DNA of 32,000 bases from Polynucleobacter sp. AP-Nino-20-G2 (GTDB lineage: Bacteria > Pseudomonadota > Gammaproteobacteria > Burkholderiales > Burkholderiaceae), in assembly GCF_018688235.1 (NCBI RefSeq), contig NZ_CP061313.1:1570538-1602537 (forward strand), read 5' to 3'. Each line of letters begins with the position of its first letter. The first letter of the stretch is position 1. Shown in pieces: positions 704 to 19,145 of the stretch. Below the pieces are notes generated by a model, which was not told where the DNA came from, made no database searches, and saw nothing but the letters and a program-made list of their open reading frames with translations. Both the position numbers and the translations under genes were made by a program.

Positions 704-715
704 TAAAACTTTACG

Positions 716-820: not shown

Positions 821-897
821 AATTTTGACCACCTAATTCACCACTAAGCTCTTGAATCTATTGAGGTCTTTGTTACAAGACCCCTAGGGCTTCTTTC

Positions 898-1139
898 TTA
901 TGAGAGCAGAAGCCCATAATAGAGCCATATAAACAGGGGCTCTGCGGGTGGTCAGTGTCGATGTGTAAGTAAATGTGTGAGCAAATTCACGCATTTACTA
1001 GAAGAGCTCTCGGACTCTTTGGTCTTCAAAACCACAGGAATTTTGGAACAACCATCTAGCACCTCGTTGCTCCAAAGTACTTTCTAGAGGAATAAGCGTT
1101 ACTTTGAGTAACGCTTATGTAGCGAGGGGCAACTACCGA
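898..1139. repeat. ~240-bp repeat unit, copy 1 (starts with the junction motif TTATGAGAGCAGA, ends ...GCGAGGGGCAACTACCGA)
   Basis: Hand alignment with 3170..3419. The shared TTATGAGAGCAGA start is followed by a diverged middle. The last ~125 nt are well conserved (CTCTTTGGTCTTCAAAACCA...GTTGCTCC...ATAAGCGTTACTTTGAGTAACGCTTAT..GCGAGGGGCA). Confidence 0.6.
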
Positions 1140-1161
1140 CCCACAGCAGCCACACATTTAT

Positions 1162-1186
1162 AAAAAACCCGCCGAAGCGGGCTTTA
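1162..1186 (-). terminator. rho-independent terminator of the autotransporter gene
   Basis: The minus strand reads AAGCCCGC-TTCG-GCGGGTTTTTT about 25 nt after the stop codon. Confidence 0.6.
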
Positions 1187-1208
1187 TTAAAGACTATTAA
1201 TCAAGTGC

Positions 1209-2627
1209 TTACAGACCAACTGTGTACGTAGCCATCACAGTAGTTGTAGAAACAGCCTGATACGGCTCTTGACGATAAATGCCGGTCACACCTAAGCGTT
1301 GATTCTTTGCCACATCGTAAGTAGCCCCAACCATTGCTGTTGGGCGAGTCTTAACGGGGTTAGCGTTAAAGTTCACCGGGCTTAACCCAGCAACACCAGT
1401 TGCAGATACAGCACCATTAGCGGTATTGGTATCAGTCTCTACCCCAGCACTGGCAAAAAGATTGGTTTGAGGGATACCTCTATAGCTAGCCCCTACGCCT
1501 GCTAAAGCAGTAGTGGCATTGGTATTGAGTGCTGAGTAAGTCAACGGCGCTGTGACTGTTGCAGAAGTACCTTCTGTATAGCCACCCATATTGTTTTGGG
1601 TATAGCGAACACCGGCATATGGAGAAACAATCACGCTCTGTGCAACCCCAAATCCATACTTAACTACCGCTTGAGCGCCTTGGCTATTTAACTGGGATGA
1701 GCCTGAACCAGCTTCGGATGTCCCAACCACTTGGCGGTTAATCGTAGTGTTCTTTTGACCATAGGCCAAGGAGACCTTTACCTCAGCGCCAGCACCATCT
1801 AAACGTTCATTCCAAGCACCAAACAGGCCAATGAGTGGCGTGTTATTTCCGAGGTTTACGGTAGAGCCTGCATTATTGACTGAGAGGTTCTGGTCTACAT
1901 ACGCGCCTACACGATAATTAATGTGTGGGCGATAAGCAGCAATGAGAAGACCGCTGGTGTTATTCAAGCCGTTAGCCGCTGAGACTGCCGTATTTCGACC
2001 ACCAGCAGATACGCAAACATTATTCTTATCAAATAAGGCGCAATCGTAGGCAAAGCTGTTAGCTAGAACTGAGTTCTGCAGTGTGTAGATATTTTGCAAA
2101 GATGATGCAGTGTTGACAAGGGAAGTTTGGGTGTCCGCAGCAGAGGGACCCTCAACAAGGTAAGTCACCGATAAATTCTCCCAGCTTGGTTCTCCACCAC
2201 CGGGGATGGTGCCAATATAAAAGAAAATGTTTGGGTTTGCCGTAGTGGTAGTAAGACGAATACTAAAGTTTGTAGAAGTATTTAAAGCGCTTCCAGTCAA
2301 TGAGGTGGTTGCACTATCCCCCAACTTAATAGACATTGTGTTTGAGAGGCTATAACTAAAATTGTAAGCACCTGAGACGGCGTAGGTTCCAGCTGAACCC
2401 GTAATGGACTGACTAAGCGAACCAGTCCCCGTATTCTGATAAGCATAAAATACACCACTCGAAGCATAGGCTGACAGTAAATTAGTTATTGTCCAGCCAG
2501 ATGTGCTATCCCCAGTAAAGGTTGGATTAACTAGCAAATTAGCTTGAGAATAGGCATTCGTCACTAATAAGCTGCCAGAAATTAAAGTCAGAAAGAAAGC
2601 AATTTTGATTTTTTTTAAGAGGCACAT
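1209..2627 (-). CDS. autotransporter outer-membrane protein (signal peptide, ~170-aa passenger, beta-barrel translocator)
   Basis: The N-terminus MCLLKKIKIAFFLTLISGSLLVTNAYSQ is a signal peptide. The segment TLQNSVLANSFAYDCALFDKNNVCVSAGGR is typical of an autotransporter linker. The C-terminal ~270 aa has the alternating beta-strand pattern of an autotransporter barrel (YAGVRYTQ.., GIYRQEPYQ..TTVMATYTVGL). Confidence 0.6.
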   Translation of the reverse strand: MCLLKKIKIAFFLTLISGSLLVTNAYSQANLLVNPTFTGDSTSGWTITNLLSAYASSGVFYAYQNTGTGSLSQSITGSAGTYAVSGAYNFSYSLSNTMSIKLGDSATTSLTGSALNTSTNFSIRLTTTTANPNIFFYIGTIPGGGEPSWENLSVTYLVEGPSAADTQTSLVNTASSLQNIYTLQNSVLANSFAYDCALFDKNNVCVSAGGRNTAVSAANGLNNTSGLLIAAYRPHINYRVGAYVDQNLSVNNAGSTVNLGNNTPLIGLFGAWNERLDGAGAEVKVSLAYGQKNTTINRQVVGTSEAGSGSSQLNSQGAQAVVKYGFGVAQSVIVSPYAGVRYTQNNMGGYTEGTSATVTAPLTYSALNTNATTALAGVGASYRGIPQTNLFASAGVETDTNTANGAVSATGVAGLSPVNFNANPVKTRPTAMVGATYDVAKNQRLGVTGIYRQEPYQAVSTTTVMATYTVGL

Positions 2628-3089
2628 GGCTACGTGAGGATAAGTGTTGGCTGTAGAGCTAATATTTTAAAAAACCGATTATGCCTCCAATCTATGACTA
2701 ACCTACTAGATTGCGCTTAATAATTTGTTGAGACAAGAGTCTGCGACAATAAAACCCCATTCACCAACCCCGCCCCAATACCCCTTACTTAGACTTACAA
2801 AATAAAAATCGGGTTATGTTCGCTTTGTTTGGAGCTTCTGTCCAAATCTTTCCAAGTAAAACTAAAGATTTAGACAAGATTGAAGTTACTTGCGTTGAAA
2901 TGGAAGCGCTTACACAGTGCAAGTCACCCTCCTAACAATTTACGACATACGTAATGTCGCTTACTGGCCGAAAGCAGCCCTTGAGCACTTGCAAACCAAG
3001 GGCAACAAATAGTTCATTGCTCCAAGCTAGAGCCATATATCTATTGGGGTCTAGCGGTGATATTTGCTACACACCGACTACACATTAAA

Positions 3090-3120
3090 GAAAAACGACT
3101 TAGGAATTTCTCCCTAAGTC
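3090..3120 (-). terminator. terminator-like hairpin directly downstream of the orphan tRNA 3' fragment
   Basis: GACTTAGG-N8-CCTAAGTC (3097..3120), followed on the minus strand by GTTTTT. Confidence 0.45.
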
Positions 3121-3131
3121 GCTAATTTCAT

Positions 3132-3171
3132 TGGTAGGCCCACCAGGACTTGAACCTGGGACCAAAGGATT
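3132..3171 (-). repeat. orphan duplicate of the tRNA 3' exon (att-type direct repeat)
   Basis: TGGTAGGCCCACCAGGACTTGAACCTGGGACCAAAGGATT matches 404..443 at 39 of 40 positions. Identity stops exactly at the exon/intron boundary of the intact gene. Confidence 0.85.
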
Positions 3172-3419
3172 ATGAGAGCAGATACCCAAAGAAAACCATT
3201 AGGATTTCAAGAGGTTACGTTGTCTGGTTATCGGTGTGTGAGTATTTGTGTGACTAGATTAACTAGATCATAAGGAGTAATGCCTCACTCTTTGGTTTTC
3301 AAAACCAATGAATATTTGGAGCAACCATTTCACACTTCGTTGCTCCACAGTGCCTTTTGAGAGATTTATAAGCGTTACTTAAAGTAACGCTTATATAGCG
3401 AGGGGCAGCTAACGATTCG
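3170..3419. repeat. ~240-bp repeat unit, copy 2
   Basis: The unit starts with TTATGAGAGCAGA. Positions 3170..3220 also match 18552..18602 (about 45/51 by hand). It contains three palindromes: TTGGTTTTCAAAACCAA (3292..3308), GGAGCAAC-N13-GTTGCTCC (3318..3346) and TATAAGCGTTACT-TAA-AGTAACGCTTATA (3367..3395). Confidence 0.6.
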
Positions 3420-4075
3420 TAGCTGCCGCCCAAAGAAAAACCACCCGTAATGGTTGCCCCTGATGTTGTTTGTGTTTCGTTTTTATTATTTAAAGTATAG
3501 ATACCGCTTGCGGTAAACCCAGCAATTGAATCGGTTTTAAATGACAATGTATTTGCCGTGCGAGCTGTAAAACCAATGTAGCTAGTTCCAGCGCTTGCAC
3601 TCGCAATTCCCTGCGCACTTGCGTATATGACGTTACCAGTCAGGTTGTTAAAGTTACCTGGATCCGTTGCTAACCCTGCGTTAAAAATTGGCGTGTATTG
3701 CAAACCAAGTGCCGCTTGTCCAATACCATTCTTTTTTAGACCAACGAATGACTGTCGATTAAATAAGCCATTATTTGCATTGCCACCTAAGTTTGCATCT
3801 TGAGGATAAATTTGAAATTCTGTTGTGAAAAATGCGGATGATCCACCACCCAAGTCTTCAATTCCTTTTAGACCAATACGACTAGAGCTCTCTGCATTCT
3901 GACCAAATTGACTTACTGTTGTCTTTGTTTCTGCGCCTGTTGTGGGGCTGACTACTCTTGAGTTGCCGCCTACATAACCCGCATCAATAATTCCATACAC
4001 CGTTACACTTGATTGTGCTTGTACGCCGCTTGCACAAACAGCTGCTAAGCCCGCCGCTGTAATAATCTTTTTCAT
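3299..4075 (-). pseudogene. Gram-negative general porin (Burkholderiales OmpC-like), 3'-truncated by the repeat unit
   Basis: The N-terminus MKKIITAAGLAAVCASGVQAQSSVTVYGIIDAGYVG... is a classic porin start. Porin-like sequence stops near aa ~215, where the reading frame runs into repeat unit 2 (about 3419). The normal C-terminal third is missing. Confidence 0.6.
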
Positions 4076-4282
4076 TTCCTATTTCCTTTACCTTTTAACT
4101 TTCAATTAATTTTGGTGACCCGAATGCAAAACCTGCAATCGAAGCCAGTCTAGGTAAAGAACTGCATGATGTCTAATGCATTTTAATGACACTTAATATA
4201 ATTAAATGTAATACATTGCTATAGTGAAGTAGATAAATGAATTCACAATTAATTTCTAAACTTTTGGACGAAAATTTGTAGC

Positions 4283-4320
4283 AAAAAAAATGCCAACAAA
4301 GGCTCAAGCTCTGTTGGCAT
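4283..4320 (-). terminator. rho-independent terminator closing the catabolic operon
   Basis: The minus strand reads ATGCCAACA-N13-TGTTGGCAT followed by TTTTTTTT, 29 nt after the Bug gene stop. Confidence 0.6.
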
Positions 4321-4348
4321 TCAGAATGAAAATGTGGGTAGCTAGATC

Positions 4349-5344
4349 TTAATCAGCCTTAATTTGATTTACTGAAATAACCTTTCCCCAGCGTTCAATT
4401 TCTTTATTTAGATAAACCCCCAGCTCTTCTGGCGATGATCCTATAGGTTCAGCACCAATACTTTCAAACTTATCCTTAATGGCAAGAGTATTCATACTGG
4501 CTACCAAGGCTACATTCAACTTCTTAATAATAGGCTTTGGAGTATTCGCTGGCACAAAAACTGCAAACCAAGGCGTGACATCATATCCTGGTAACCCAGA
4601 CTCAGCAATGGTTGGTATGCCTGGCAAGGCCTTAGAGCGCTTGATTGTCGTTAAACCGATTGGCCTTAGCTTTCCAGAAAGAATATGAGGCTTTGCAGAA
4701 GTGATGCTGTCAAACATGTAATTCACTTGACCGCCAAGTAAGTCAGTCACTGCTGGGCCGCTACCCTTATAAGGAATATGTTGCATATCTATTTTCGCTA
4801 ACGACGTAAATACCTCTCCAGCCAAATGAATAGAAGTGCCGTTACCTGCTGACGCATAGGTAATCCTTCCAGGCTGCGCCTTTGCATTTGCTATCACATC
4901 CGCAACTGTTTTTACGTTAGGCTGGGTAGCATTAGTAACCAATACATTAGGCACAATAGCAATGAGACTAACGGGCGCAAAATCCTTTATCGGGTCATAG
5001 CTTAATTTTGGATATAAAAACTTATTGGTAGCCATGCCAATTGAAGTAATCATCATTGTGTAACCATCAGCTTCAGAACGAGCTACTAATTCCGCTCCAA
5101 TATTCCCGCCTGCACCGGGCTTATTTTCGACAAAGATTGTCTGACCCAAAGATTTGGAGGAGCTATCTGCAAGTGCGCGTGCAATCACATCCATTGCCCC
5201 GCCGGGCGGAAAAGGAACAATCCATTTAATTGGCTTAGTGGGCCATTCCTGTGCATTAGCCATACTGAAGTACAGGAATATTGCAGCAATTCCAATGCCC
5301 TTTCCTATCCAGGATGGCTTCCGTTTATTTCCCATCATGCCCAC
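4349..5344 (-). CDS. Bug-family (TctC-like) tripartite tricarboxylate transporter substrate-binding protein
   Basis: A signal peptide is followed by QEWPTKPIKWIVPFPPGGAMDVIAR, the hallmark N-terminus of the Bug family. At 331 aa it has the typical size. Confidence 0.8.
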   Translation of the reverse strand: MGMMGNKRKPSWIGKGIGIAAIFLYFSMANAQEWPTKPIKWIVPFPPGGAMDVIARALADSSSKSLGQTIFVENKPGAGGNIGAELVARSEADGYTMMITSIGMATNKFLYPKLSYDPIKDFAPVSLIAIVPNVLVTNATQPNVKTVADVIANAKAQPGRITYASAGNGTSIHLAGEVFTSLAKIDMQHIPYKGSGPAVTDLLGGQVNYMFDSITSAKPHILSGKLRPIGLTTIKRSKALPGIPTIAESGLPGYDVTPWFAVFVPANTPKPIIKKLNVALVASMNTLAIKDKFESIGAEPIGSSPEELGVYLNKEIERWGKVISVNQIKAD

Positions 5345-6635
5345 TTTTCCCTGCTAATGAGATTGCAATACATGCAATTGCGCCTGGAATTGCGAATGCA
5401 TAGAAGTTAAATTCCAATGGCAAACCCAAGCTTAACAAAGTACCGCCTAGCACTGGACCTAAAATAGCGCCCACACGACCAATGCCAGAGGCCCAACCAA
5501 TACCAGTGGAACGAATTTTTAATGGGTAGTATTGCGCAACATAGGCATAGAGCAAGATTTGAGAGCCAATTGTGGTTGCGCCTGCAATAGCTACCAATAG
5601 ATTTAAAACAATGAATGGACTCTTAACACCTAAGAGACTAATTGAAGCGGCAGCGCAAATAAAGAAAATGGTAAGTACCTTGCGTGGATGGAACTTATCG
5701 GCAAGCCAACCACCTCCAACCGCTCCAAAGATAGCGCCAATGTTTAGCACCATCAAGAACATTAGGCTTGAACCCATCTCATACCCAGCTTTGTTCATTA
5801 GCTTTGGAAGCCAAGATCCCAACGCATAAACCATTAATAGGCACATAAAGAATGAAGTCCAGAACATTAAAGTACTTAATACGCGACCATCTTTAAAGAG
5901 CGAAACCAAAGGTACAGAGCTAGAGGCTTTACCTAATGGATAGATATATTCATTAGAAAGCAATGTGCCGCGCTCTGGGGCGATTTTTTTTAATATTTTT
6001 CCAGCATCAGAGTTCCGATTTGATTTAATCAAAAATCCAGGTGACTCAGGCAGATAGTAAAGAATGATTGGTAGCAGCAGCAGTGGAATAATGGCAACGA
6101 AAAAAACTGAGGGCCAGCCATAGGTCGGAATTAAATAGATTCCTACGCCAGCCGATAACATACCGCCAACTGAGTAACCGCTAAACATAATCGTTACCAG
6201 CAGGCTACGAATTTTTTTAGGTGAATATTCAGTCATCAAAGCAACCACGTTAGGCATTACGCCACCAATGCCTAATCCAGCAATAAATCGACAGATACCA
6301 AACTGCGTAAGGTTTTCTGCAAAACCATTAATAAAGGTAAAGAAGCTAAACAATGTAACGCACATTGCAATAGTCTTTTTTCTCCCTATCTTGTCTGATA
6401 ACGGCCCAAAGAACATAGCTCCAAACATCATGCCAAATAATGCATAACTACCCAAAGTCCCTGCCTGCATGGGTGATAACTGCCATTCGGCCATTAATTT
6501 AGGCAAAACAACTCCATAGATGACGAGATCGTAACCATCAAAAATGATGATTAGACCGCACCAAAATAAAAGACCCCAGTGAAATTTATTAAACCTCGCT
6601 TCGTCTATTAACTTATGAACATCAATTTGACTCAT
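5325..6635 (-). CDS. MFS transporter, aromatic acid:H+ symporter family (BenK/PcaK-like)
   Basis: 436 aa with a 12-TM-like profile. The FDGYDLVIYG and GPLSDKIGRKK motifs are typical of AAHS-family MFS transporters. It sits between pcaD and the Bug gene. Confidence 0.75.
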   Translation of the reverse strand: MSQIDVHKLIDEARFNKFHWGLLFWCGLIIIFDGYDLVIYGVVLPKLMAEWQLSPMQAGTLGSYALFGMMFGAMFFGPLSDKIGRKKTIAMCVTLFSFFTFINGFAENLTQFGICRFIAGLGIGGVMPNVVALMTEYSPKKIRSLLVTIMFSGYSVGGMLSAGVGIYLIPTYGWPSVFFVAIIPLLLLPIILYYLPESPGFLIKSNRNSDAGKILKKIAPERGTLLSNEYIYPLGKASSSVPLVSLFKDGRVLSTLMFWTSFFMCLLMVYALGSWLPKLMNKAGYEMGSSLMFLMVLNIGAIFGAVGGGWLADKFHPRKVLTIFFICAAASISLLGVKSPFIVLNLLVAIAGATTIGSQILLYAYVAQYYPLKIRSTGIGWASGIGRVGAILGPVLGGTLLSLGLPLEFNFYAFAIPGAIACIAISLAGKSGHDGK

Positions 6636-6637
6636 GC

Positions 6638-7441
6638 TTATGTCTCCAATTTGTGTTTGATTTGATTTGCAAAAAATTGCTTGATTACTTGATTGAATTC
6701 AGTTTCTGCTTCAATGTTTGAAATGTGCGAAGCAGGCACCTCTTGTAGTTGAGACCCTTTAATTTGGGACTGCATATACTGAGCATCACTAATAGTGGTA
6801 ACAGGATCTTTATCCCCGCTGATAATTAATGCAGGAATATTGATTTCTGAAATCCCCCCCTTAAGATCCTCAGTAGCCAATGCCTCGCAACAACTTGCAT
6901 AACCTTCAGGGTTCATATTTTTCAAGTTAATCAGTAATTCGTTAACTGCTTTAGGGCTTGAACCATAAAACTCTGGTGTAAACCATCTCGAAGGAGCGGA
7001 TTCTGCGATAGTATTGAGACCCTCTTTTCTAGCTAAAGCCGCCCGCTCATTCCATGCCTGCTCATTACCTATTTTTGGCGCAGTATTTGCAATCACTAAC
7101 GCCTCAATTCTTTCGGGCGCATTGACCGCTAGCCATTGACCAATAAGCCCGCCCATCGAAATTCCACAGAAGAAAGCCTTATCAATACTGAGGTAATCAA
7201 GAAGACCTAAAACATCATTTGCTAGCTGTGCAATGGTGTACGGACCCTTTGGAGAATGAGTTAATCCATGACCTCTAGTGTCGTATCTGATTAAGTAGAA
7301 ATCTCTTCTTAATACTTCAAGCTGACCATCCCACATAGAATGATCTGTTCCTAAAGAGTTAGAGAAAATAATTGCTGGTTTGTGAGGATCGCCATCTGTC
7401 AAATAGAAGATGTCAATTCCGTTAATGTGCGCAATACTCAT
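6638..7441 (-). CDS. pcaD: 3-oxoadipate enol-lactonase
   Basis: Alpha/beta hydrolase of 267 aa with GISMGG nucleophile elbow and the YDTRGHG motif. It lies in the beta-ketoadipate gene context. Confidence 0.8.
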   Translation of the reverse strand: MSIAHINGIDIFYLTDGDPHKPAIIFSNSLGTDHSMWDGQLEVLRRDFYLIRYDTRGHGLTHSPKGPYTIAQLANDVLGLLDYLSIDKAFFCGISMGGLIGQWLAVNAPERIEALVIANTAPKIGNEQAWNERAALARKEGLNTIAESAPSRWFTPEFYGSSPKAVNELLINLKNMNPEGYASCCEALATEDLKGGISEINIPALIISGDKDPVTTISDAQYMQSQIKGSQLQEVPASHISNIEAETEFNQVIKQFFANQIKHKLET

Positions 7442-7449
7442 TACTACTC

Positions 7450-8658
7450 CTAAACTCGTTCAATAATCATGGCTATGCCCTGCCCAACACCAATACACAT
7501 AGTGCAAAGAGCGTATCTACCTTTAGTGCGAATCAGTTGATACATAGCTGCAGTTACTAATCGCGCACCAGATGCCCCTAGTGGATGCCCAAGAGAAATA
7601 GCGCCCCCATTTGGATTGACGTGCGCCGCGTTGTCAGGAAGACCAAGATCACGAGTAACTGCTAAAGCCTGCGATGCAAATGCCTCATTTAGCTCAACCA
7701 CATCCATCTGACTAAGCTTTAAACCTGCTTTTTCCAAAACCTTCTTCACTGCAGGCGAAGGACCAAATCCCATGATTCTTGGAGCAACGCCAGCCGCAGC
7801 CACAGCCACAACACGCGCCTTTGGAGTCAGGGAATGCTGCTTTACACCAAGCTCTGAGGCAAGAAGCAAGGCGCAAGCGCCATCATTTACGCCTGAAGCA
7901 TTGCCGGCAGTAACTGTGCCACCTTGTTTAACAATGCTTTTTAGAGAAGCTAAAGTTTCTAGGGTGGTGAGACGCGGATGCTCATCCTTAGAAAAAACAA
8001 CAGGATCGCCCTTTTTCTGCGGAATATTTACCGGAATAATTTCATCGTCAAAGATGCCTGCAGCCTGCGCCTTTGCAGTACGCTGCTGACTAGTAAACGC
8101 AAATAGATCCTGATCAGCCCTGGAAATCCTAAAGTCTTCGGCAACGTTTTCTGCTGTTTCTGGCATGGAGTCAACGCCATACTGAGCCTTCATTAAGGGA
8201 TTAATGAAGCGCCAACCAATAGTTGTATCTTCAATTTTTGCCGATCTTGAATACGCAGAGTCGGCTTTACCCATTACAAAAGGTGCCCGAGACATGCTCT
8301 CTACACCCCCCGCAATCATTAGATGGTTGCCGCCACCTTTAATTGCATTTGCAGCTATACCAATGGCATCAAGACTAGAGCCACAGAGTCTATTGATGGT
8401 GGATCCAGGCACTTCCACTGGTAGACGAGCCAACAAGCTGGCCATCCTAGCAACGTTACGATTATCTTCACCCGCCTGATTGGCGCAACCAAAAATAACG
8501 TCATCTAACATTGACCAATCAACAATATTACGCATCATGAGAGCTTGAATTGGTAATGCAGCCAAATCATCCGCCCTTAAAGTAGATAGTGACCCACCGT
8601 ACCTACCAAAAGGAGTTCTAATGGCATCACAAATATATGCATTTGAATTATTTTTCAT
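7450..8658 (-). CDS. pcaF: 3-oxoadipyl-CoA thiolase
   Basis: Thiolase of 402 aa. It has the INRLCGSS active-site Cys, GNASGVNDGA, and C-terminal CIGVGQG motifs. It is adjacent to pcaIJ. Confidence 0.85.
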   Translation of the reverse strand: MKNNSNAYICDAIRTPFGRYGGSLSTLRADDLAALPIQALMMRNIVDWSMLDDVIFGCANQAGEDNRNVARMASLLARLPVEVPGSTINRLCGSSLDAIGIAANAIKGGGNHLMIAGGVESMSRAPFVMGKADSAYSRSAKIEDTTIGWRFINPLMKAQYGVDSMPETAENVAEDFRISRADQDLFAFTSQQRTAKAQAAGIFDDEIIPVNIPQKKGDPVVFSKDEHPRLTTLETLASLKSIVKQGGTVTAGNASGVNDGACALLLASELGVKQHSLTPKARVVAVAAAGVAPRIMGFGPSPAVKKVLEKAGLKLSQMDVVELNEAFASQALAVTRDLGLPDNAAHVNPNGGAISLGHPLGASGARLVTAAMYQLIRTKGRYALCTMCIGVGQGIAMIIERV

Positions 8659-9305: not shown

Positions 9306-9307
9306 TT

Positions 9308-9976: not shown

Positions 9977-11167
9977 TCTTTTCTTTACTCTTTAATTTCA
10001 ATAAATCTTTATCAAAAACAACATATGCAATAGATCCAATCACAATTCCCCAGAATGCTGATCCCAGACCTAAAAAAGTCATGCCAGATGCAGTTGCTAA
10101 AAATGTGATTGCGGCAGCCTCACGATGATCGGGTTCTTCTAAAGTGCTCATGAGGCTAGTGACGATTGCGCCAAGTAAAGCTAAGCCAGCCAAAAGCGCG
10201 ATGAGCTCTTTTGGAAGACTGGTAAAAATGAGAACGATTGAACCTGCTAAGGAACCGCCAATTAAAAAGAAAACGCCGCTGAAAATGCCTGCAACATATC
10301 GCTTGTTTGGATCTTCGTTAGCTTCTTTGCCTGTACATAGGGTTGCCGTAATTGCTGCAGTCGTAGTGGTAATGCCACCAAAGAATGCGGTTACCAGGGA
10401 CATGAAACTTGTAAAAGTAATAATGGGCTTAGCGGGCACGTGATAGTTCGATAACTTGAGGATTGCCATTCCCGGCAAGTATTGGCCGGTCAAACTTACT
10501 AGAACCAACGGTATTGCAAAGCTGAATGTTGATTCCCAAGTCCACACAGGAGTGATGAATGTAGGATGGGCCAAAGCTAGCCTGAAATTATCTGGATTAA
10601 CATCACCAATGAGATATGCCAGCCCGATTCCTGAAAATAAAACAACTAAGATCGCGAATTTTGGTATCAACCTTTTGAATATCAGATAAATTCCAATCAT
10701 CGATAAAGCCAAGGCAGGCATGGTTGATACAGATTTAAATATATTGATACCAAACTGAAATAGAATGCCCGCCATCATTCCGGCCGCTATTCCCTTGGGT
10801 ATATGCTTTATTAGCTTGTCAAAGGTACCCGTAATGCCAATTAATAGAATGATCATTGCGGCAGTGATATAAGAAGAAATTGCCTCATTGACCGACATAT
10901 GCGGAAATAAGGCGATTAAGAGCGCAGCGCCAGGAGCGGACCAAGCAGTAATGATCGGCATCTTGTATTTCCAACTGAGATAAATCCCGGAAATGCCACC
11001 ACCAAACGATACCGCCCATACCCAAGAAGATAGAACTTCATTAGATACCTGAGCTAGAGATGCGGCCTGAAAAAATATCAGCATCGGCCCAGCATAGGAA
11101 ATCAATACAACTAGAAATCCAGCCGTAATTGAAGAGGGTGAAATATCTTTGAAAAAGGCGCGCTTCA

Positions 11168-11168
<1 letters not shown>
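9969..11168 (-). CDS. benE: benzoate membrane transport protein (BenE family)
   Basis: A 399-aa polytopic membrane protein directly downstream of benD, with a TAATG stop/start overlap. Its N-terminus and size are typical of BenE. Confidence 0.7.
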
Positions 11169-13480
<2,312 letters not shown>

Positions 13481-13484
<4 letters not shown>

Positions 13485-14851
13485 GCGTTCACCTGCTCTT
13501 GCTCAACTGCTTTTTTCATTGTTTCAAGCCAATAGCGATGCTGAACTGTGTACAGGCCCTCATCTTCAGTTTTCAAGCCACTTAATACGGGTTTCAAGCC
13601 GATCTCTTTAGCCGCATCGTCAGCGCCTTCAATCCAATGCTCTGAACCACGACACATATCGTTCCACTCGATCGTCTTTGCAGCAAAGCCTTCCTGGCAA
13701 GCTCTAAACTCTTCCAAGTCATCTGGAGTAGCCATACCGCTCACGTTAAAGAAGTCCTCGTATTGACGAATTCTTCTAGAGCGCGCTTCTGCTGACTCGC
13801 CTTTTGGAGCAATACAGTAGATAGTGACTTCAGTTTTATCAACAGCTAATGGGCGCAGTAAGCGGATCTGTGAACCAAACTGATCCATCAAATACACGTT
13901 TGGATATAAGCAAAGATTTCTGGAGCGCTCAATCATCCAATCAGCAATTGGTTTGCCAAACTTATCGGAAAATTCCTGGTGCCTCGGGAAATTTGGCCGG
14001 TCCTGTGGATTAGCCCACTTTGTCCAGAGGAGCATATGGCCGTGATCAAATGAATAGAAGCCACCACCCTGCTTACCCCACTTGCCAGCATCCATTGCTT
14101 TGATGTTGTCTTCGCGAATTGCTTCTTGCTCTTTACGATGGTTGGTAGTTGCAGCATAGTTCCAATGAACAGCAGATACGTGATAACCATCAGCACCGTT
14201 TTCTGCCTGAAGCTTCCAATTACCGTTAAAGGTATAAGTTGAGGCGCCCTTCAATACTTCGAGTCCATCAGCAGATTGATCCACAATCATGTCAATGATC
14301 TTGGCGGCTTCACCCAAAAAGTCCTTTAAAGGGGCAACATCATTATTTAAGCTACCAAATAAGAAGCCACGATAGCTTTCAAACTTAGGCACCTTCTTGA
14401 GATCGTGTGAGCCTTCCTTGTTAAAGCACTCTGGGTAGCCGGCCTCCTCTGGATCTTTAACCTTCAAGAGCTTTCCGCTGTTATTAAATGTCCAGCCGTG
14501 GAATGGGCAAGTGAAAGTAGCCTTGTTGCCGCGCTTATGACGGCACAACTGAGCGCCACGATGGCTACAAGCATTCATCATGGCGTTCAGTTCACCCTGA
14601 CGATTACGAGAAATGAAGATTGGCTGACTACCAATATAGGTAGAGTAGTAATCATTGATGTTTGGGATTTGACTTTCGTGCGCCAAATAAATCCAATTAC
14701 CCTCAAAGATGTGCTTCATCTCTAATTCAAACAAATCTTTATCGGTAAAAGCACTACGGTGAAGACGATAGTCGCCCTTCTCCTTATCCTCAATTAAGAA
14801 TTCATCAAGGCTTTTGAGTTTTGGACTGTTATCTACATGAATTGGGATCAT
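13481..14851 (-). CDS. benA: benzoate 1,2-dioxygenase large (alpha) subunit
   Basis: Rieske motif CSHRGAQLC...CPFHGW and a mononuclear-iron catalytic domain, 456 aa. Confidence 0.9.
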
Positions 14852-14894
14852 TTTTTATCCTTTATGAATGGGATGCTGGCATCCCATATTCAAA

Positions 14895-15815
14895 TTACGC
14901 AGCTGCGCGAGTTCTCTCGACAATTCCAGAGGCAGCGGCTGGCTTCTCAATCACCATCTGAATATCGAAATCAATCGAAGCAAATGGTTTGCTTACACCC
15001 TTAGCTTTAAGTTCGGCTGCGTCATTAACGCGAACTACTGGAGGAACAAGTCCTTCACGACTTGCAAAGGCGAAGTCATCCCAGAGATATTTATCGCCAT
15101 CAATATTGATTTGAGTAGTTAACTTTCTGTGACCAGGTGCAGTTACAAAGAAATGAACGTGCGCTGGGCGTTGGCCATGACGACCCAATAAATTCAACAA
15201 AGCTTGAGTAGAACCATCCGGCGGGCAGCCATAACCATTTGGCATGATGCTTTGGAATGAATAGCGACCATTCTCATCAGTAATGATGGTGCGACGTAAA
15301 TTGAATGAAGACTGAGTCTTATCAAAGAATGAGTAACCACCCAATGTATTGGCATGCCAAACTTCTACCTTGGCATTTGGTAATGGCTTACCGTCAGCAC
15401 CAAAAACTGTACCTTGCATAAACAATGGTTCTGCTTTATCCACCTCAGAGCCATCGTCCATGCGTGCAAAGCCTTTTGACTCTGGAGCACCAGCAACATA
15501 TAAAGGACCCTCAATAGCACGTGGTGTACCGCCTGTTAGGCCAGCCTTCTCATCGGCCTCATCCGCGCGCATATCTAAGAAGCGCTCTAGACCAATGCCA
15601 GGAGCCAATAGGCCTAATTCATTACGTGCGCCAGCCTCTGAGAAATACTCTAAGCCCTTCCAGAATTCCGTTGGGGTAATGTCCAAGTCTTCAATTGCTT
15701 TGCATAGGTCAGTAACCAAGCGCAATGTAATTTCTTGAACACGCTTGTTCGCAGGAGAATCGGCTGCATCAACAATCCATTCTTTTGCTAATTTTTCAAT
15801 ATCAGTATGTTTCAT
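14895..15815 (-). CDS. catA: catechol 1,2-dioxygenase
   Basis: Intradiol dioxygenase of 306 aa with GPLYVAGAP and RPAHVHFFV motifs. Confidence 0.9.
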   Translation of the reverse strand: MKHTDIEKLAKEWIVDAADSPANKRVQEITLRLVTDLCKAIEDLDITPTEFWKGLEYFSEAGARNELGLLAPGIGLERFLDMRADEADEKAGLTGGTPRAIEGPLYVAGAPESKGFARMDDGSEVDKAEPLFMQGTVFGADGKPLPNAKVEVWHANTLGGYSFFDKTQSSFNLRRTIITDENGRYSFQSIMPNGYGCPPDGSTQALLNLLGRHGQRPAHVHFFVTAPGHRKLTTQINIDGDKYLWDDFAFASREGLVPPVVRVNDAAELKAKGVSKPFASIDFDIQMVIEKPAAASGIVERTRAAA

Positions 15816-15889
15816 TTTGTATCCTATTAATTTGTATGTGTGTAATTAAGTTCGCTACCAACTGCATATCTGTGAAATTTTTCAAATAA

Positions 15890-16180
15890 TTAACTGTCGT
15901 CCCCCCTTACGGAAGATGGATGTCTGCACAAAGGCATTACTTCAATTTGCATGTATGGGAAGAGTGGAAGTGTCGAAATAGCTGTATGCAATTCCTCTAC
16001 GCTCGCAACATCAAATACGCTAATGTTTGCGTACTGGCCAGCGATGCGCCAGAGATGACGCCACTTGCCAGAGCTTTGCAATCCTTGCGCAATTTCTTTT
16101 TCTTTCTTTTTCAATGCCGCTGCCTCAGCCTCTGGCATTGAAGTGGGTAAATTCACATTCATTCTTACGTGGAATAACAT
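15890..16180 (-). CDS. catC: muconolactone delta-isomerase
   Basis: 96 aa: MLFHVRMNVNLP...GKWRHLWRIAG...LPLFPYMQIEVMPLCRHPSS, the canonical CatC pattern. Confidence 0.9.
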   Translation of the reverse strand: MLFHVRMNVNLPTSMPEAEAAALKKKEKEIAQGLQSSGKWRHLWRIAGQYANISVFDVASVEELHTAISTLPLFPYMQIEVMPLCRHPSSVRGDDS

Positions 16181-16191
16181 GTTGTCTCCTT

Positions 16192-17337
16192 TTATGCAGG
16201 TATCAAATCAACTTGGTCTGAATGACCTTGCTGACGTTTTAAATAATTAATTTTTTCAATGTCTAGCCGAATGCCAAGACCAGGACCTTTAGGAACCTGT
16301 AGAGAAAAATCCTTGTAAACCAATGGCTCAGTCAGAATTTCTTCAGTAAGTAATAGCGGTCCGAATAATTCGGTTCCAAATGCTAAGTCGCTGAAAGTAG
16401 AAAACACATGGGCAGAGGCTGCTGTACCAACTGCACCTTCAAGCATGGTGCCGCCATACAAACTAATGCCACTAAGTTCTGCAATGGTTGCTACCTGAAG
16501 CGCTGGGAAGAGACCGCCTGACTGATTGATCTTGACGGCAAAAACATCGGCTGCAAATTTATTTGCTAGTTCCAATGCATCAAAAGGACCATGCAATGCT
16601 TCATCGGCCATGATGGCAACATCAAACTGATTAGTCAGGCGAGCCATGCTTGCTTTATATGAAGCTTTGACAGGCTGCTCAATTAAATCAATTCCACCTG
16701 CCTGAAGTGAAGCTATACCTTTAACAGCATCTAATTCACTCCATGCCTGGTTCACATCTACACGCACACTGATATCAGAGCCTAATGCACGTTTAATTGC
16801 GAGTACGTGTTCTACATCCGCTTCAACAGAGCGCAAGCCAATTTTCAATTTGAAAATATTGTGTCTGCGCAGTGAAATCATCTTCTCCGCTTCGGCAATA
16901 TCTTTTTTGGTATCTCCACTTGCTAATGTCCATGCAACTGGAAGCTCATCCCGAACGCGGCCGCCTAGCAATTCACTAACCGGAACACCAAGGCGCTTAC
17001 CTTGAGCATCAAGCAATGCAGTCTCGATTGCGCACTTAGCAAAACGATTACCTTGTATAGTAGAGCGCAACTTATTCATTGCCTTGGCAACCTGATCGGC
17101 TTTCATACCAACAATCAGGGGTGCCATATAGGTATCGATATTGGTCTTGATACTTTCTGGGCTCTCTTCACCATAATTCAGACCTCCAATCGTGGTGGCC
17201 TCACCCCATCCCTCAATACCGTCATCACAAAGAATGCGCACCAAAACAAGAGCCTGGGCATTCATCGTGGCCACAGATAACTTGTGTGGGCGGATAGTCG
17301 GCACATCAACTATTAGGGTTTCTACTGATTTGATCAT
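16192..17337 (-). CDS. catB: muconate cycloisomerase
   Basis: A 381-aa enolase-superfamily protein (MR/MLE) positioned first in the operon and divergent from the LysR gene. Confidence 0.9.
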   Translation of the reverse strand: MIKSVETLIVDVPTIRPHKLSVATMNAQALVLVRILCDDGIEGWGEATTIGGLNYGEESPESIKTNIDTYMAPLIVGMKADQVAKAMNKLRSTIQGNRFAKCAIETALLDAQGKRLGVPVSELLGGRVRDELPVAWTLASGDTKKDIAEAEKMISLRRHNIFKLKIGLRSVEADVEHVLAIKRALGSDISVRVDVNQAWSELDAVKGIASLQAGGIDLIEQPVKASYKASMARLTNQFDVAIMADEALHGPFDALELANKFAADVFAVKINQSGGLFPALQVATIAELSGISLYGGTMLEGAVGTAASAHVFSTFSDLAFGTELFGPLLLTEEILTEPLVYKDFSLQVPKGPGLGIRLDIEKINYLKRQQGHSDQVDLIPA

Positions 17338-17407
17338 ATCTATTTCGTATAGTTTTTCGATAAATGAACTCTAAACAGGTCTTTTTGACGAGTCCAAGAC
17401 TGATTTG

Positions 17408-17435
17408 GTATCCTTTTGATACTTAAAAGGTATAC
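17408..17435. promoter_or_regulatory. candidate CatR/BenM operator in the catB-catR divergent region
   Basis: GTATCCTTTTGATACTTAAAAGGTATAC contains ATAC-N7-GTAT (17419..17433), the dyad reported for BenM/CatM-type regulators, plus an overlapping GTAT-N7-ATAC. It lies ~82-96 nt upstream of the catB ATG. Confidence 0.5.
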
Positions 17436-17437
17436 AT

Positions 17438-18352
17438 ATGGAATTAAGGCATCTACGCTACTTTGTTGCTGTTGCAGAAGAAAAGAACTTCACTAGAGCT
17501 TCTGAAAAACTGTTCATAGCACAGCCGCCCTTGAGCAGGCAGATCCAACAACTCGAAGAAGAGTTGGGCGTAACTTTGTTTGTAAGGAACTCGCGACCCC
17601 TCAAACTGACAGACGCGGGCAACTTTTTCTATGAGCATGCCAAGCAGGTTTTAGCTAGAACTGGCGAACTCAAGGCTATGACTCAACGGGTTGGTAATAT
17701 CAACCGAATTCTGAATGTCGGTTTTGTTGCATCAACGCTCTACGGAAAACTTCCGAAAATTATTCGAAAATATCGAGCCAAATTTAATTCCATTGAATTG
17801 CGGATGTATGAAATGACAACAATGGAACAGCTCAAAGCTTTGAAAGATGGAAAGATTGATATTGGCTTTGGACGAGTACGTCATGAAGACGCCAATATCA
17901 GACGGATTGTATTGAGGGAGGAAAAACTCATTGCTGCAGTTCCTTATGAGCACCCACTATCAAAATCAAACAAGCCCATCAACTTAAAAGACTTAGCCGA
18001 TGAAAATCTCATTGTCTTTCCAAAAAATCCCCGTCCTAGTTACGCAGACCAAGTATTAAATGGTTTCAAAGAAAGGGATGTTCATCCCAAAAAGATTATT
18101 GAAGTTCGAGAATTACAAATAGCTATTGGCCTTGTTGCTGCAGGCGAAGGTGTATCCATTGTTCCATTTAGCTTGCAGGGCATGAAACGTGATGACGTTG
18201 TATATCTAGAATTAAATGAAAAGCATGCCTACTCCCCCATCATCATGAGCACTAGATCAATGGATAAGTCTGAAGAAATTAAGGCAATGCTTGATTTAAT
18301 TTATTGCATCTATGACGAAGAGGGTATTTCTTATACGAGAGAAGAGTTATAA
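17438..18352 (+). CDS. catR: LysR-family transcriptional activator of the cat/ben genes (CatR/CatM/BenM type)
   Basis: The N-terminal wHTH MELRHLRYFVAVAEEKNFTRASEKLFIAQPPLSRQIQQLEEELG is characteristic. The protein is 304 aa and transcribed divergently from catB. Confidence 0.85.
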   Translation: MELRHLRYFVAVAEEKNFTRASEKLFIAQPPLSRQIQQLEEELGVTLFVRNSRPLKLTDAGNFFYEHAKQVLARTGELKAMTQRVGNINRILNVGFVASTLYGKLPKIIRKYRAKFNSIELRMYEMTTMEQLKALKDGKIDIGFGRVRHEDANIRRIVLREEKLIAAVPYEHPLSKSNKPINLKDLADENLIVFPKNPRPSYADQVLNGFKERDVHPKKIIEVRELQIAIGLVAAGEGVSIVPFSLQGMKRDDVVYLELNEKHAYSPIIMSTRSMDKSEEIKAMLDLIYCIYDEEGISYTREEL

Positions 18353-18420
18353 ATTTGCCGCACACTACAACCCCAATATATTTTTGTAGGTAGATTATTT
18401 AAAGTATCGCCATTGAAAAA

Positions 18421-18442
18421 TGTGTAGTATTTGACTACACAC
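18421..18442. repeat. inverted pair of the GTGTGTAGT-type motif
   Basis: TGTGTAGTATTTGACTACACAC: two copies of the motif family also seen at 716..820 and 3062..3086, here facing each other. Confidence 0.5.
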
Positions 18443-18456
18443 TTTCTAGCATGCCC

Positions 18457-18477
18457 AGCGTTACTTAAAGTAACGCT
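18457..18477. repeat. palindrome AGCGTTACT-TAA-AGTAACGCT (copy 3 of 4)
   Basis: It has the same core as 1092..1118, 3367..3395 and 25425..25441. Confidence 0.6.
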
Positions 18478-18551
18478 CAAATGACCAAACCCCACCTTTA
18501 GTCTCAAAAGCTAGCTTTTTGTAATGTTTAGGTCCTGTTTAGGTTCTCTGG

Positions 18552-18602
18552 TTATGAGAGCAGACATCCAAGGTAGACCATTAGGATTTCAAGGGGTTAC
18601 GT
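18552..18602. repeat. junction motif copy 3 (TTATGAGAGCAGA plus 38 nt), candidate left boundary of the accessory island
   Basis: TTATGAGAGCAGACATCCAAGGTAGACCATTAGGATTTCAAGGGGTTACGT versus 3170..3220 TTATGAGAGCAGATACCCAAAGAAAACCATTAGGATTTCAAGAGGTTACGT. The first 13 nt also occur at 898..910. Confidence 0.7.
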
Positions 18603-19135: not shown

Positions 19136-19145
19136 TTAAGCCTCC

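Follow-up and report, generated by a model that had tools for sequence, protein, structure and literature searches.

The stretch analysed here, the window, comprises 32,000 nt of Polynucleobacter sp. AP-Nino-20-G2 (NZ_CP061313.1), and all coordinates are window-based (Table 1). A complete tRNA-Ile2 gene at 404-703, interrupted by a group I intron of the Azoarcus type and missed by ARAGORN, is followed by a first cargo segment with an autotransporter gene, by a second segment that encodes a truncated porin, TctC, MFS, a pcaD-like hydrolase, pcaF, pcaIJ, benE, benDCBA, catA, catC, and catB, all minus-strand, as well as plus-strand catR (17438-18352), and by the backbone of a recombinase island whose gene order is repeated in the related loci L015, L143, L148-L153, and L277.

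Table 1. Features of the window, in order of position.
Feature	Coordinates	Strand	Basis or remarks
term1, terminator hairpin after tRNA	369..396	-	terminator scan
tRNA-Ile2* 3' exon	404..443	-	sequence; positions 37-76, ends CCA
Group I intron, Azoarcus tRNA-Ile type	444..666	-	223 nt; between anticodon-loop positions 36 and 37
tRNA-Ile2* 5' exon	667..703	-	anticodon TAT
X195, right (P') arm of element	704..897	-	194 nt; replacement tRNA gene next
Motif copy 1	898..910	-	core CTCATAA 898-904; element/element junction: P1 arm, core, X195
Block 1, long left (P1-type) arm	905..1171	-	CACAC/GTGTG repeats, two hairpins, palindrome 1092-1118
Segment 1 cargo, autotransporter beta-domain protein	1209..2627	-	Pfam PF03797, 4.7e-13
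Degenerate P1-arm-like remnant	3029..3060	-	AGAGCCATATA module of the preliminary description; downstream of term2
term2, terminator-like hairpin after orphan tRNA 3' half	3090..3121	-	read from sequence; recurs in other loci
Orphan tRNA-Ile2 3' half	3132..3171	-	positions 37-76, C72T; 98% copy of 404-443
Motif copy 2 and 44-nt P2 arm	3170..3220	-	core 3170-3176; element/tRNA (attR-type) junction
Block 2, distal left arm	3221..3447	-	palindrome 3368-3394; fused to truncated porin gene
Segment 2 cargo, truncated porin to catR	3299..18352	-	Pfam
Palindrome AGCGTTACTTAAAGTAACGCT	18457..18477	.	outer limit of right arm; copy 3 side
U80, non-tRNA right arm	18478..18551	-	recurs after P1 and P2 arms
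Motif copy 3 and 44-nt P2 arm	18552..18602	-	core 18552-18558; element/element junction, recombinase-island end
Recombinase-island backbone	18614..26502	-	two HTH paralogues, AAA ATPase, two unknown proteins, 190-aa recombinase, DUF6641, RNase T-like protein
190-aa tyrosine recombinase	22389..22961	-	catalytic domain only; R, K, HxxR, H, Y present
Fourth palindrome copy	25425..25441	.	inside island backbone; same position in L143, L148, L149, L152

The exact 13-mer TTATGAGAGCAGA occurs three times in the window, at 898, 3170, and 18552, always on the plus strand, against 0.01 copies expected from shuffles, none of which (0/100) reaches three. On the minus strand it reads TCTGCT-CTCATAA, where the last seven bases, CTCATAA, correspond to the tRNA-Ile2(CAU) anticodon loop. 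The preliminary description had reported these three copies in one orientation, an extension of copies 2 and 3 to about 51 nt, a palindrome CGTTACT-N3-AGTAACG and GTGTGTAGT-type short repeats at the boundaries, and a module common to 921..951 and 3029..3060, all of which are reproduced. Specifically, 3170-3220 aligns with 18552-18602 over 51 nt at 88% (45/51), the palindrome lies at 1097, 3373, and 18459 with none expected by chance, the GTGTGTAGT-type 9-mers number 11 against 3.75 expected, six of them within ~200 nt of the motif copies, and the shared module aligns at ~25/31 with two gaps. Moreover, cores have a 24-fold excess of RTGTGTAR repeats in the surrounding 350 nt, and copies 1 and 2 belong to diverged blocks of ~275 nt (898-1171 and 3170-3447, 78-80% identity).

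Each copy joins its left arm to a different right-hand sequence. Copy 1 is centred in a perfect 8-bp inverted repeat, since X195 begins with GAAAGAAGCCC, bases 4-11 of which (AGAAGCCC) repeat the left-arm segment GGGCTTCT in inverted orientation, each 3 nt from the core; the arm of block 1 is 87% identical to L010 18583-18801, where it directly abuts a tRNA 3' half. Copy 2 runs on into tRNA positions 39-76 of the orphan half, upstream of which there is no 5' half, and the stretch 2953-3131, with term2 and the remnant module, is found again after tRNA-Ile2 in at least 14 loci. Likewise, the unit of tRNA plus term1 has homologous copies in L001, L010, L020, and L023, and adjoins catR in relatives. 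At copy 3, the order of island end, arm, core, U80, and palindrome is shared with L015, L149, and L165, and U80 is possibly a decayed tRNA 3' half plus terminator. The copies had been described as segment boundaries; they are indeed junctions, but hybrid element/element or element/tRNA sites inside an array and not the ends of one island.

The unit of left arm and tRNA 3' half could alternatively be a functional RNA gene, namely a tRNA of split or unusual form or a small RNA resembling a tRNA, as it is kept in many genomes, may hold the group I intron at its usual site (L002), and includes TCTGCTCT, complementary to tRNA positions 21-28. This is very improbable: the 5' acceptor strand and D arm are absent, ARAGORN and Rfam make no tRNA call on the orphan half even with E up to 10, the same left arms join the non-tRNA U80 and X195 equally often, and orphan 3' halves decay, as in L015 and maybe in U80.

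X195 directly follows the CTCATAA of the rpoD-linked tRNA 5' half in L023, where the order is rpoD, tRNA 5' half, CTCATAA, X195, intron-bearing tRNA, terminator, palindrome, and island. X195 leads into a full tRNA-Ile2 gene, at 180-217 nt, in 19 of 21 readable cases; the element disrupts the tRNA gene and carries a replacement copy, which is a new feature. In the window, the joined exons of this copy form a cloverleaf (ARAGORN) with the anticodon TAT, against CAT in 59 related copies, and the intron scores 55.7 bits with Rfam RF00028 (gathering score 50, E 1e-11). The intron is present in 16 of the 19 X195-linked genes and in seven more with other or unreadable upstream context, and in none of the 23 native rpoD-linked genes of this sample; it is seen only away from the native gene and mostly in replacement copies, a second new feature. 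In 1992, Reinhold-Hurek and Shub reportedly described a group I intron of the Azoarcus type in tRNA-Ile(CAU). The host gene, the insertion point after CAU, the GUGCCUU...GGGAUGGUGUCAAAUUCGG elements, the overall fold, and the absence of a homing endonuclease are common to both, whereas here the intron is mainly element-borne, never in the native gene, and in the window accompanied by the TAT anticodon.

Comparison with about 250 related loci, most of which were picked via the tRNA or the motif so that counts are biased thereby, yields four junction types (tRNA/tRNA, tRNA/element, element/tRNA, and element/element) that have only the 7 bp CTCATAA in common. The genome scan of junctions gave 35 tRNA/tRNA, 8 tRNA/X195, at least 40 arm/tRNA, and 8 arm/X195 or arm/U80 cases. 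A matrix of 216 de-duplicated junctions shows that left and right arms assort freely. Breakpoints in relatives, anticipated at the motif copies, fall on the 7-bp core at copies 1 and 3 and are of both presence/absence and swap types: L010 departs from the window at copy 1, while at copy 3 L001, L002, and the window all differ, L002 combining the left arm of L001 with the right arm of the window through a switch inside the motif. Moreover, L071 and L115 carry integrase-less modules between a tRNA and a junction. A relative with ben/cat/pca at the same place and no such repeats, which would have spoken against the initial proposal, was not found. Together, the sequences next to the copies and these comparisons show the tRNA origin of the sites, the sharing of only 7 bp among four junction types, and breakpoints at the core.

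There is hardly any likelihood that the motif belongs to a dispersed REP/MITE-like intergenic repeat near which the catabolic cluster lies incidentally. The accompanying GTGTGTAGT-type repeats and palindrome would fit such a repeat, and the palindrome alone is dispersed, but all 38 matches of TCTGCTCTCAT in 1.22 Mb of related loci (the set used for motif and palindrome counts) lie at tRNA-Ile2-derived junctions, followed on the right by the tRNA 3' half, the intron, U80, or X195; the motif itself holds the anticodon loop and copy 2 runs into the tRNA. In a metagenome scan with the right flank not fixed, ~100 of 128 matches have the same arms and few kinds of right flank, about 20 being chance matches. 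The motif is thus not the general intergenic repeat that the preliminary description had named as a refuting outcome.

The stretch 3441-18499 is 99.7-99.8% identical to GCA_018705835.1, another Polynucleobacter genome, with flanks at only 85-87%, and the neighbours of the ben/cat/pca block vary among at least five genomes, with five different ones on the catR side. These comparisons show that the block has recently been exchanged. The identity between the window and L010 breaks at 3441, within the porin gene (410 aa in L010, truncated in the window), and the high-identity segment stops at this truncation and at the palindrome (~18499). As these ends lie off the core, the last transfer into the window genome may have used other recombination.

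These ends bear on another explanation, in which the cores are old inactive scars and modules, ben/cat among them, are now shuffled at the 21-bp palindrome AGCGTTACTTWAAGTAACGCT or by homologous recombination in conserved arms; the 190-aa recombinase, which has no arm-binding domain, might be the enzyme acting on the palindrome. The palindrome brackets nearly every module, including the 450-aa integrase gene in L097, L258, L262, and L277; a GDT1+BV97 module distinguishes the window from L015, with the crossover inside the palindrome at copy 3; L009 and L010 diverge immediately beyond a palindrome; and half of its 62 copies in 1.22 Mb are over 700 nt away from the nearest core. Against this, many exchanges break precisely at the 7-bp core and have unrelated sequence on either side, a pattern that the palindrome cannot explain, and the palindrome may only mark where conserved att arms end on the outside and differing cargo begins. 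This explanation is unlikely, albeit the one alternative of some weight.

The motif is probably an att-site scar of elements that target the tRNA-Ile2 anticodon loop, with ben/cat/pca as one cargo module in a tandem array. It would consist of the left-arm end (TCTGCT) and the 7-bp crossover segment (CTCATAA) of the attachment sites of an integrative-element family that would recombine with tRNA-Ile2 just downstream of rpoD in Polynucleobacter and related freshwater Burkholderiales. Successive insertions, followed by recombination between any two sites, would build the array, in which the putative junction unit between modules comprises palindrome, left arm of ~200 nt, CTCATAA, right arm, and palindrome, the right arm being a tRNA 3' half plus terminator, U80, or X195 with a complete, usually intron-bearing replacement tRNA-Ile2 gene. 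The tRNA 3' half at copy 2, the intron-split tRNA, the four junction types, and the exchanged cluster indicate that the window is the interior of such an array, made of mostly integrase-less modules; in the tRNA sense it reads island backbone, core 3, ben/cat/pca, core 2, autotransporter, core 1, and replacement tRNA. Against this reading, rpoD does not adjoin the array here, and a core is missing from the array's right limit at ~26610. The first suggestion for the locus, that site-specific elements or their remnants accreted in tandem, gains support from the confinement of the motif to tRNA-Ile2-derived junctions and from the core-breaking polymorphisms.

The acting enzyme would be a tyrosine integrase of ~450 aa. 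Such integrases occur in 19 loci, in 8 together with the 190-aa enzyme, and in L110, L224, and L250 lie ~100-160 nt from a tRNA-Ile2 3' end. The sole recombinase in the window is the 190-aa protein (Pfam PF00589 2.9e-26; phrog_216 2e-41; 5798 homologues), which is found as well in islands of Burkholderia cenocepacia that lack any link to tRNA-Ile2; the large integrase is predicted, from its position in L277, to sit 6-7 kb past the right end. In L154, a relative of the island backbone lies at the anticodon loop of tRNA-Lys(CUU), with the tRNA restored.

Tyrosine integrases of islands and prophages in the anticodon-loop sublocation class, attributed to Williams (2002), reportedly cross over in the 7-nt tRNA anticodon loop. 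As in that class, the crossover segment here is the anticodon loop between inverted repeats, tRNA-derived direct repeats bound the inserted DNA, and in relatives the tRNA has beside it a tyrosine integrase whose N-terminal domain is SAM-like. Unlike that class, the X195-type element has just 7 bp in common with the tRNA, which is not restored, a second complete tRNA-Ile2, usually with a group I intron, lies ~190 nt away, and the 450-aa integrases are very divergent, most members falling below Pfam thresholds. ICESt1 of Streptococcus thermophilus exemplifies how ICEs and integrase-less cis-mobilisable elements (CIMEs) accrete in tandem. It likewise shows att-flanked segments in direct orientation, most of them integrase-less beside an integrase-bearing element, and hybrid element/element junctions, but host group, target, and integrase family differ and no conjugation genes were seen here. 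The array also resembles integron cassettes in having cargo modules between short structured junctions and a recombinase at one side; it differs in the missing IntI-specific extra domain (NCBIfam integron-integrase scores far below cutoff), the absence of attI and attC, the tRNA-derived junctions, and the multi-gene modules with their own regulators.

Tycheposons, or tRNA-proximal additive flexible genomic islands, of streamlined aquatic bacteria grow by repeated integration at one tRNA, newer elements pushing older ones inward, and leave scattered partial tRNAs and degenerate elements with nutrient and catabolic cargo; in Methylophilaceae, one that has a xerD-type recombinase is reported at tRNA-Met(cat) (bioRxiv 10.1101/2020.12.28.424599; PMC10872708). 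The aquatic host, growth at one tRNA, partial tRNAs, and nutrient/catabolic cargo are shared, whereas here there is no recognisable replication module with primase or helicase, the repeat consists of an anticodon loop with non-tRNA arms and not a 3'-terminal tRNA segment, and the replacement tRNA with its intron has no counterpart in tycheposon descriptions.

Lastly, the catabolic cluster had been proposed to be, or to have been, a mobilisable island. The near-identical block, its diverged flanks, and its changing neighbours support this proposal, although the exchanged ends do not coincide exactly with copies 2 and 3, and neither an excised circle nor an empty site was found for the ben/cat module itself. 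Since segment 2, like segment 1, contains no integrase, its present mobility would need a recombinase in trans, and integrase-less modules such as ben/cat would move only with the ~450-aa enzyme supplied in trans, or within larger blocks.

Three exact copies of the junction motif, TTATGAGAGCAGA, occupy positions 898, 3170 and 18552, as the preliminary description had reported, all on the plus strand; shuffled sequence is expected to hold 0.01 copies, and a count of three was reached in 0 of 100 shuffles. The 51-nt extension proposed for copies 2 and 3 was recovered at 88% identity, and copies 1 and 2 are each part of a longer block, 898-1171 and 3170-3447, the two blocks having diverged to 78-80% identity. 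The accompanying boundary elements were likewise borne out: the CGTTACT-N3-AGTAACG palindrome is located at 1097, 3373 and 18459, and also at 25425, against a chance expectation of none; 9-mers of the GTGTGTAGT type number 11 against 3.75 expected and cluster at the three sites; and the module common to 921-951 and 3029-3060 is real. Moreover, RTGTGTAR repeats are 24-fold enriched within 350 nt of the cores (core, the CTCATAA part of the motif), where they may represent arm-type binding sites, and at copy 1 a perfect 8-bp inverted repeat, GGGCTTCT/AGAAGCCC, is centred on the core. The GC content is 0.39-0.41 in the island versus 0.43-0.45 in the cluster, and the segments are hardly separable by this measure. 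The full 21-bp palindrome, AGCGTTACTTWAAGTAACGCT, at the same four window positions, has 62 copies in 1.22 Mb of fetched related loci; it brackets nearly every module, including the gene of a 450-aa integrase (L097, L258, L262, L277), and a module indel that distinguishes the window from the related locus L015 has its crossover there. A match to the small RNA rsmX at 1162-1248 on the minus strand was discarded, being below threshold (29 bits versus 56) and driven by the hairpin CCCGCTTCGGCGGG.

Read on the minus strand, the motif is TCTGCT-CTCATAA, and copy 2 runs directly into TCCTTTGGTCCCAGGTTCAAGTCCTGGTGGGCCTACCA, which covers tRNA positions 39-76, from the 3' strand of the anticodon stem through the variable loop, T arm and acceptor strand to CCA. 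Because copy 2 continues into the 3' part of a tRNA, CTCATAA corresponds to the anticodon loop of a CAU tRNA. This orphan 3' half (3132-3171) is a 98% copy of 404-443, the 3' exon of an interrupted tRNA-Ile2 gene. ARAGORN called no tRNA in the window; the gene was missed because an intron hides it, and it was recovered by Rfam and manual joining of the exons. Specifically, Rfam RF00028 (group I intron) matches 451-678 on the minus strand with 55.7 bits against a gathering score of 50, and the exons, spliced in silico, form a perfect 77-nt cloverleaf resembling tRNA-Ile2, with the intron in the anticodon loop. By Rfam class and position the insert is an RF00028 group I intron, its splicing being predicted, and on the Rfam alignment it resembles the Azoarcus tRNA-Ile(CAU) intron. 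The anticodon of the window copy is TAT (C34T; 667-703, minus strand), as opposed to CAT in 59 others (20 intron-bearing, 39 intron-less); this copy is either a tRNA-Ile(UAU) with no need for lysidine or a gene at the onset of decay.

Features of the window and neighbours of the catR side of the ben/cat/pca block in the window and related loci
Feature	Locus	Position	Strand	Remarks
tRNA-Ile2 5' exon	window	703-667	-	37 nt
Group I intron	window	666-444	-	Rfam RF00028 and exon boundaries
tRNA-Ile2 3' exon	window	443-404	-	40 nt
Terminator hairpin CCCGCTTCGGCGGG	window	within 1162-1248	-	after autotransporter gene
190-aa tyrosine recombinase	window	22389-22961	-	catalytic domain only, catalytic residues present; 3.8 kb from core 3
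catR-side neighbour	window			recombinase island
catR-side neighbour	L015			GDT1+BV97 module
catR-side neighbour	L001, L002			tRNA-Gly/htpG block
catR-side neighbour	L020			intron-bearing tRNA exon
catR-side neighbour	L003			IS

In relatives, sampled by a scan of one genome per species, the sequence preceding the tRNA 3' half was classified at 133 places. A normal 5' half, hence an intact intron-less gene, precedes it at 35, the end of an Azoarcus-type intron at about 40, and a second kind of insert at about 14, while 22 exact matches plus near variants carry left arms of the window type ending in TCTGCTCTCAT, which fall into two types, P1 and P2. A related third arm type accounts for about 12 places in Limnohabitans and Comamonadaceae; it reads TGTAACCTATTGATTTGCAATAGGTTTTATTTCTTAAAGCTG-CTCAT before the same tRNA half and has a 9-bp palindrome at the place of the AACCTCT...AGAGGTT of P2 (eleven loci). 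The second insert splits the same tRNA one step earlier, between positions 33 and 34 (GGACT, TAAAGAGCAG...GTAGTAAG, CATAATCC) in nine loci of Limnohabitans and other Burkholderiales, and is probably another group I intron. That the left arms are themselves intron ends or odd 5' exons was considered and rejected, since they have no acceptor strand and the same arms also join non-tRNA sequence.

A tRNA/X195 junction is found in L023, where the rpoD stop codon is followed after 13 nt by the tRNA 5' half through CTCATAA, and then by a homologue of X195, the right arm of copy 1 (window 897-704); beyond X195 lie a complete intron-bearing tRNA-Ile2 gene with its terminator, then the palindrome, and then an island that has its recombinase backbone in common with the window. 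Counted by genome locus, there are 35 tRNA/tRNA, 8 tRNA/X195, at least 40 arm/tRNA and 8 arm/X195 or arm/U80 junctions (U80, the right arm of copy 3), and left and right arms assort freely in a de-duplicated matrix of 216 junctions. In the alignment, the sole sequence common to all four junction types is CTCATAA; with 7 bp of common sequence, homologous recombination is ruled out, and, as far as sequence comparison can tell, the overall pattern is the one expected if a tyrosine recombinase acts on att sites with a 7-bp overlap. Copies 1 and 3 are, on this view, element/element junctions, made up at copy 1 of P1 arm, core and X195 and having U80 as right arm at copy 3, and copy 2 is an element/tRNA junction; to judge from a partial similarity, U80 may have arisen by decay of a 3' half and its terminator. 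With respect to the tRNA gene, two kinds of right arm coexist: a 3' half plus terminator restores the tRNA gene (L001, L020, L154), and an X195-type arm does not restore it but is accompanied by a whole tRNA gene. Of the 21 cases that could be read, 19 have a complete tRNA-Ile2 gene 180-217 nt after X195, and the Azoarcus-type intron is present in 16 of 19 X195-linked genes versus none of 23 rpoD-linked 5' ends, indicating that the intron travels with the element. No sigma-70-like promoter was found in X195, and a search of phage and plasmid collections for a free attP (block 1, core, X195, tRNA) returned tRNA and intron similarity only. In L090, the closest relative of the left flank of the window, unrelated sequence meets the tRNA 3' half exactly at position 37 (7552-7600, ...AAAATATCT followed by AATCC) with no CTCAT, a junction left unexplained by the core model.

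A dispersed repeat of the REP or MITE kind would have many copies in unrelated intergenic regions across the genome, and the preliminary description had named a common intergenic repeat as a finding that would overturn its proposal. TCTGCTCTCAT has 38 copies in the 1.22 Mb of fetched loci against 0.6 expected; all 38 lie at tRNA-Ile2-type junctions, being followed by the tRNA 3' half (26), the intron (4), U80 (5) or X195 (3). The metagenome contexts agree: a scan with TGGNNNTCTGCTCTCATAA, the right flank left free, gave at least 128 matches on at least 120 contigs, and among the matches listed about 100 have P1 or P2 arms, joined to the right flanks already named or to two additional types of right arm, and about 20 look like chance. 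In these loci and metagenome contexts, the dispersed repeat was rejected.

Polymorphism between relatives had been expected to have its breakpoints at 898, 3170 and 18552; this proved correct for copy 1 (L010) and copy 3 (L001 and L002), whereas the exchanged block ends at 3441 and at the palindrome. At copy 1, block 1, the core and the tRNA 3' half directly abut in L010; in the window, X195, the 5' exon and the intron add 454 bases whose limits are the core and the exon border. At copy 3, the left arm is common to L001 and L002 and the right arm to L002 and the window, so that L002 switches inside the motif. At copy 2, the unit made of the 3' half, its terminator-like hairpin and the module has counterparts in at least 14 loci, where it comes after a P1 arm or an intact tRNA. 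The ben/cat/pca block (3441-18499) is 99.7-99.8% identical to that of GCA_018705835.1, with flanks at 85-87%; there it is enclosed by a decayed 3' half with terminator and, at the opposite end, by block 1, core and a 3' half with terminator. Its catR side has at least five different neighbours (see the table), and no further catR contexts were found in the scan loci. Exact-protein look-ups matched CatR, the MFS protein and CatB, and found no match for the window autotransporter; together with the genome scan, they assign the window to Polynucleobacter, and the nitroreductase flank of the window is 98% identical to strain AP-Capit-er-40B-B4. In relatives, the far end of the ben/cat module comprises a D-amino-acid oxidase gene preceded by a glycine riboswitch (66.6 bits; L009 and L010, 17074-17162), a part that is deleted in the window. 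A paper related to work on Polynucleobacter genomic islands (PMC5644125) makes no mention of tRNA or integrases.

Two recombinases are associated with these junctions. The 190-aa enzyme belongs to a family with 5798 homologues at E < 1e-10; an exact-protein look-up of its 212-aa ORF gave no match, which fits a wrong start codon because the gene of a relative is called at 190 aa. It is part of a backbone conserved across Burkholderiales that includes an RNase T-like gene, DUF6641, an AAA ATPase (weak DnaC-like matches only) and two HTH paralogues, and in the window, L015, L149 and L165 the HTH end leads into the P2 arm, after which come the core, U80 and the palindrome. The HTH paralogues (18614-19135 and 19146-19670; 173 and 174 aa, mutual E ~1e-24) adjoin the P2 arm; as the recombinase has no arm-binding domain, they are candidates for factors that bind the arms or set directionality. 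In Burkholderia cenocepacia, the same backbone resides in an island that has a 328-aa integrase at its border and is not linked to tRNA-Ile2; this island (L144-L147) contains the 190-aa recombinase, DUF6641 and neighbours together with SIR2-HerA and other defence genes. The 190-aa enzyme had appeared to be the only integrase in three motif screens that were too strict, a view abandoned when phmmer with the L154 integrase as query detected a family of ~450-aa integrases in 19 loci, of which only some members reach Pfam scores for integrase or SAM-like domains. This integrase gene lies within ~100-160 nt of the tRNA-Ile2 3' end in L110, L224 and L250, and co-occurs with the 190-aa enzyme in 8 loci. 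The full layout (L155, L258, L262) reads arm, core, X195, tRNA, terminator and palindrome, then the ~450-aa integrase gene between two palindromes, the backbone with the 190-aa enzyme, P2 arm and core. In L154 (6405; 18367-18500), the DUF6641/190-aa backbone and a 414-aa integrase are flanked by a complete tRNA-Lys(CUU) gene and, on the other side, by a partial copy starting at the anticodon loop, CTCTTAA; L154 is a sister system on another tRNA.

The ~450-aa integrase gene is absent from the window. Positions 25845-32000 are 98.2% identical to L277, in which an 11-kb amidase/ABC block lies between the RNase T-like gene on one side and the palindrome-bracketed integrase gene and a truncated tRNA end on the other; from this match, the integrase gene is predicted 6-7 kb past position 32000. 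The 11-kb block (window 26610-32000: esterase, amidase, NMT1/ABC transporter, lipocalin, branched-chain ABC transporter, amidohydrolase) occurs at 99% identity in two different neighbourhoods, inside the island (L277, window) and by an aryl-polyene-like lipid cluster (L275, L276, L278), and its left junction has neither core nor palindrome.

Segment 2, the catabolic segment, contains no integrase. At its copy-2 end, a porin gene cut short at 3441 is fused with block 2, and at its copy-3 end the crossover relative to L015 lies inside the palindrome, which indicates that the last rearrangements here did not use the cores. Recombination of copy 3 with copy 2 would give P2/core/U80 and P2/core/3' half, both common in nature in the 216-junction matrix, making excision of segment 2 in trans plausible. 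Integrase-less segments between att sites in direct orientation, beside an integrase-bearing element, comprise segments 1 and 2 of the window and occur in L071 and L115. The proposed tandem accretion of site-specific elements or their remnants is supported and sharpened, with junctions derived from a tRNA, freely assorting arms and breakpoints at the core.

In tRNA-targeting tyrosine-integrase islands of the anticodon-loop class, attP usually carries the 3' part of the tRNA so that integration restores the gene, although this is not strictly defining. The system resembles anticodon-loop tRNA integrases in its tRNA-derived repeats starting at the anticodon loop and in having all four att-type junctions, and tandem accretion with integrase-less elements in its att-flanked, integrase-less segments in direct orientation. 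In the tycheposon or additive-island model, older elements are displaced inward by newly arriving ones, and partial tRNAs are left behind (bioRxiv 10.1101/2020.12.28.424599; PMC10872708); the array of the window behaves alike, the likeness being one of the array. Tycheposons proper are recognized by an integrase of their own tyrosine-recombinase clades and a replication module (primase or helicase). The system differs from all three patterns in that only 7 bp are identical with the tRNA, the element brings along an entire, intron-containing replacement tRNA, palindromes surround nearly every module and two recombinases are involved. Integrons are recognized by an IntI with an extra domain, an attI site and promoterless cassettes bounded by attC; an integron was rejected, given 51 bits for TIGR02249 against a cutoff of 265, multi-gene modules with regulators and junctions derived from a tRNA.

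The array marks a hot spot at which the abundant freshwater Polynucleobacter gain and swap multi-gene traits, here the complete route from benzoate to beta-ketoadipate. It also shows an uncommon solution for an essential single-copy tRNA target: the element has only 7 bp in common with the gene, breaks it and supplies a full replacement. The patchy distribution of Azoarcus-type tRNA-Ile group I introns is linked in this way to carriage by mobile elements, and the spread of bacterial tRNA introns without homing endonucleases, an open question, becomes testable. Annotation of these genomes is affected, since tRNA finders missed the gene split by the intron and orphan halves of tRNAs are common; the exact junction sequences can be used for tracking in metagenomes.

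A joint reading, which we regard as rather improbable, is that the elements destroy the only tRNA-Ile2 gene of the host and substitute their own, that the intron confers target immunity, and that the array is an integron-like platform. The intron would split the 7-bp crossover site and remove the right-hand inverted repeat at the DNA level, and would in this way keep the family integrase off the replacement gene. If the reading is true, integrative elements would spread endonuclease-free tRNA introns among Betaproteobacteria, and the array would work much like an integron, its multi-gene cassettes set between copies of the 21-bp palindrome and served in trans by the 450-aa and 190-aa recombinases.
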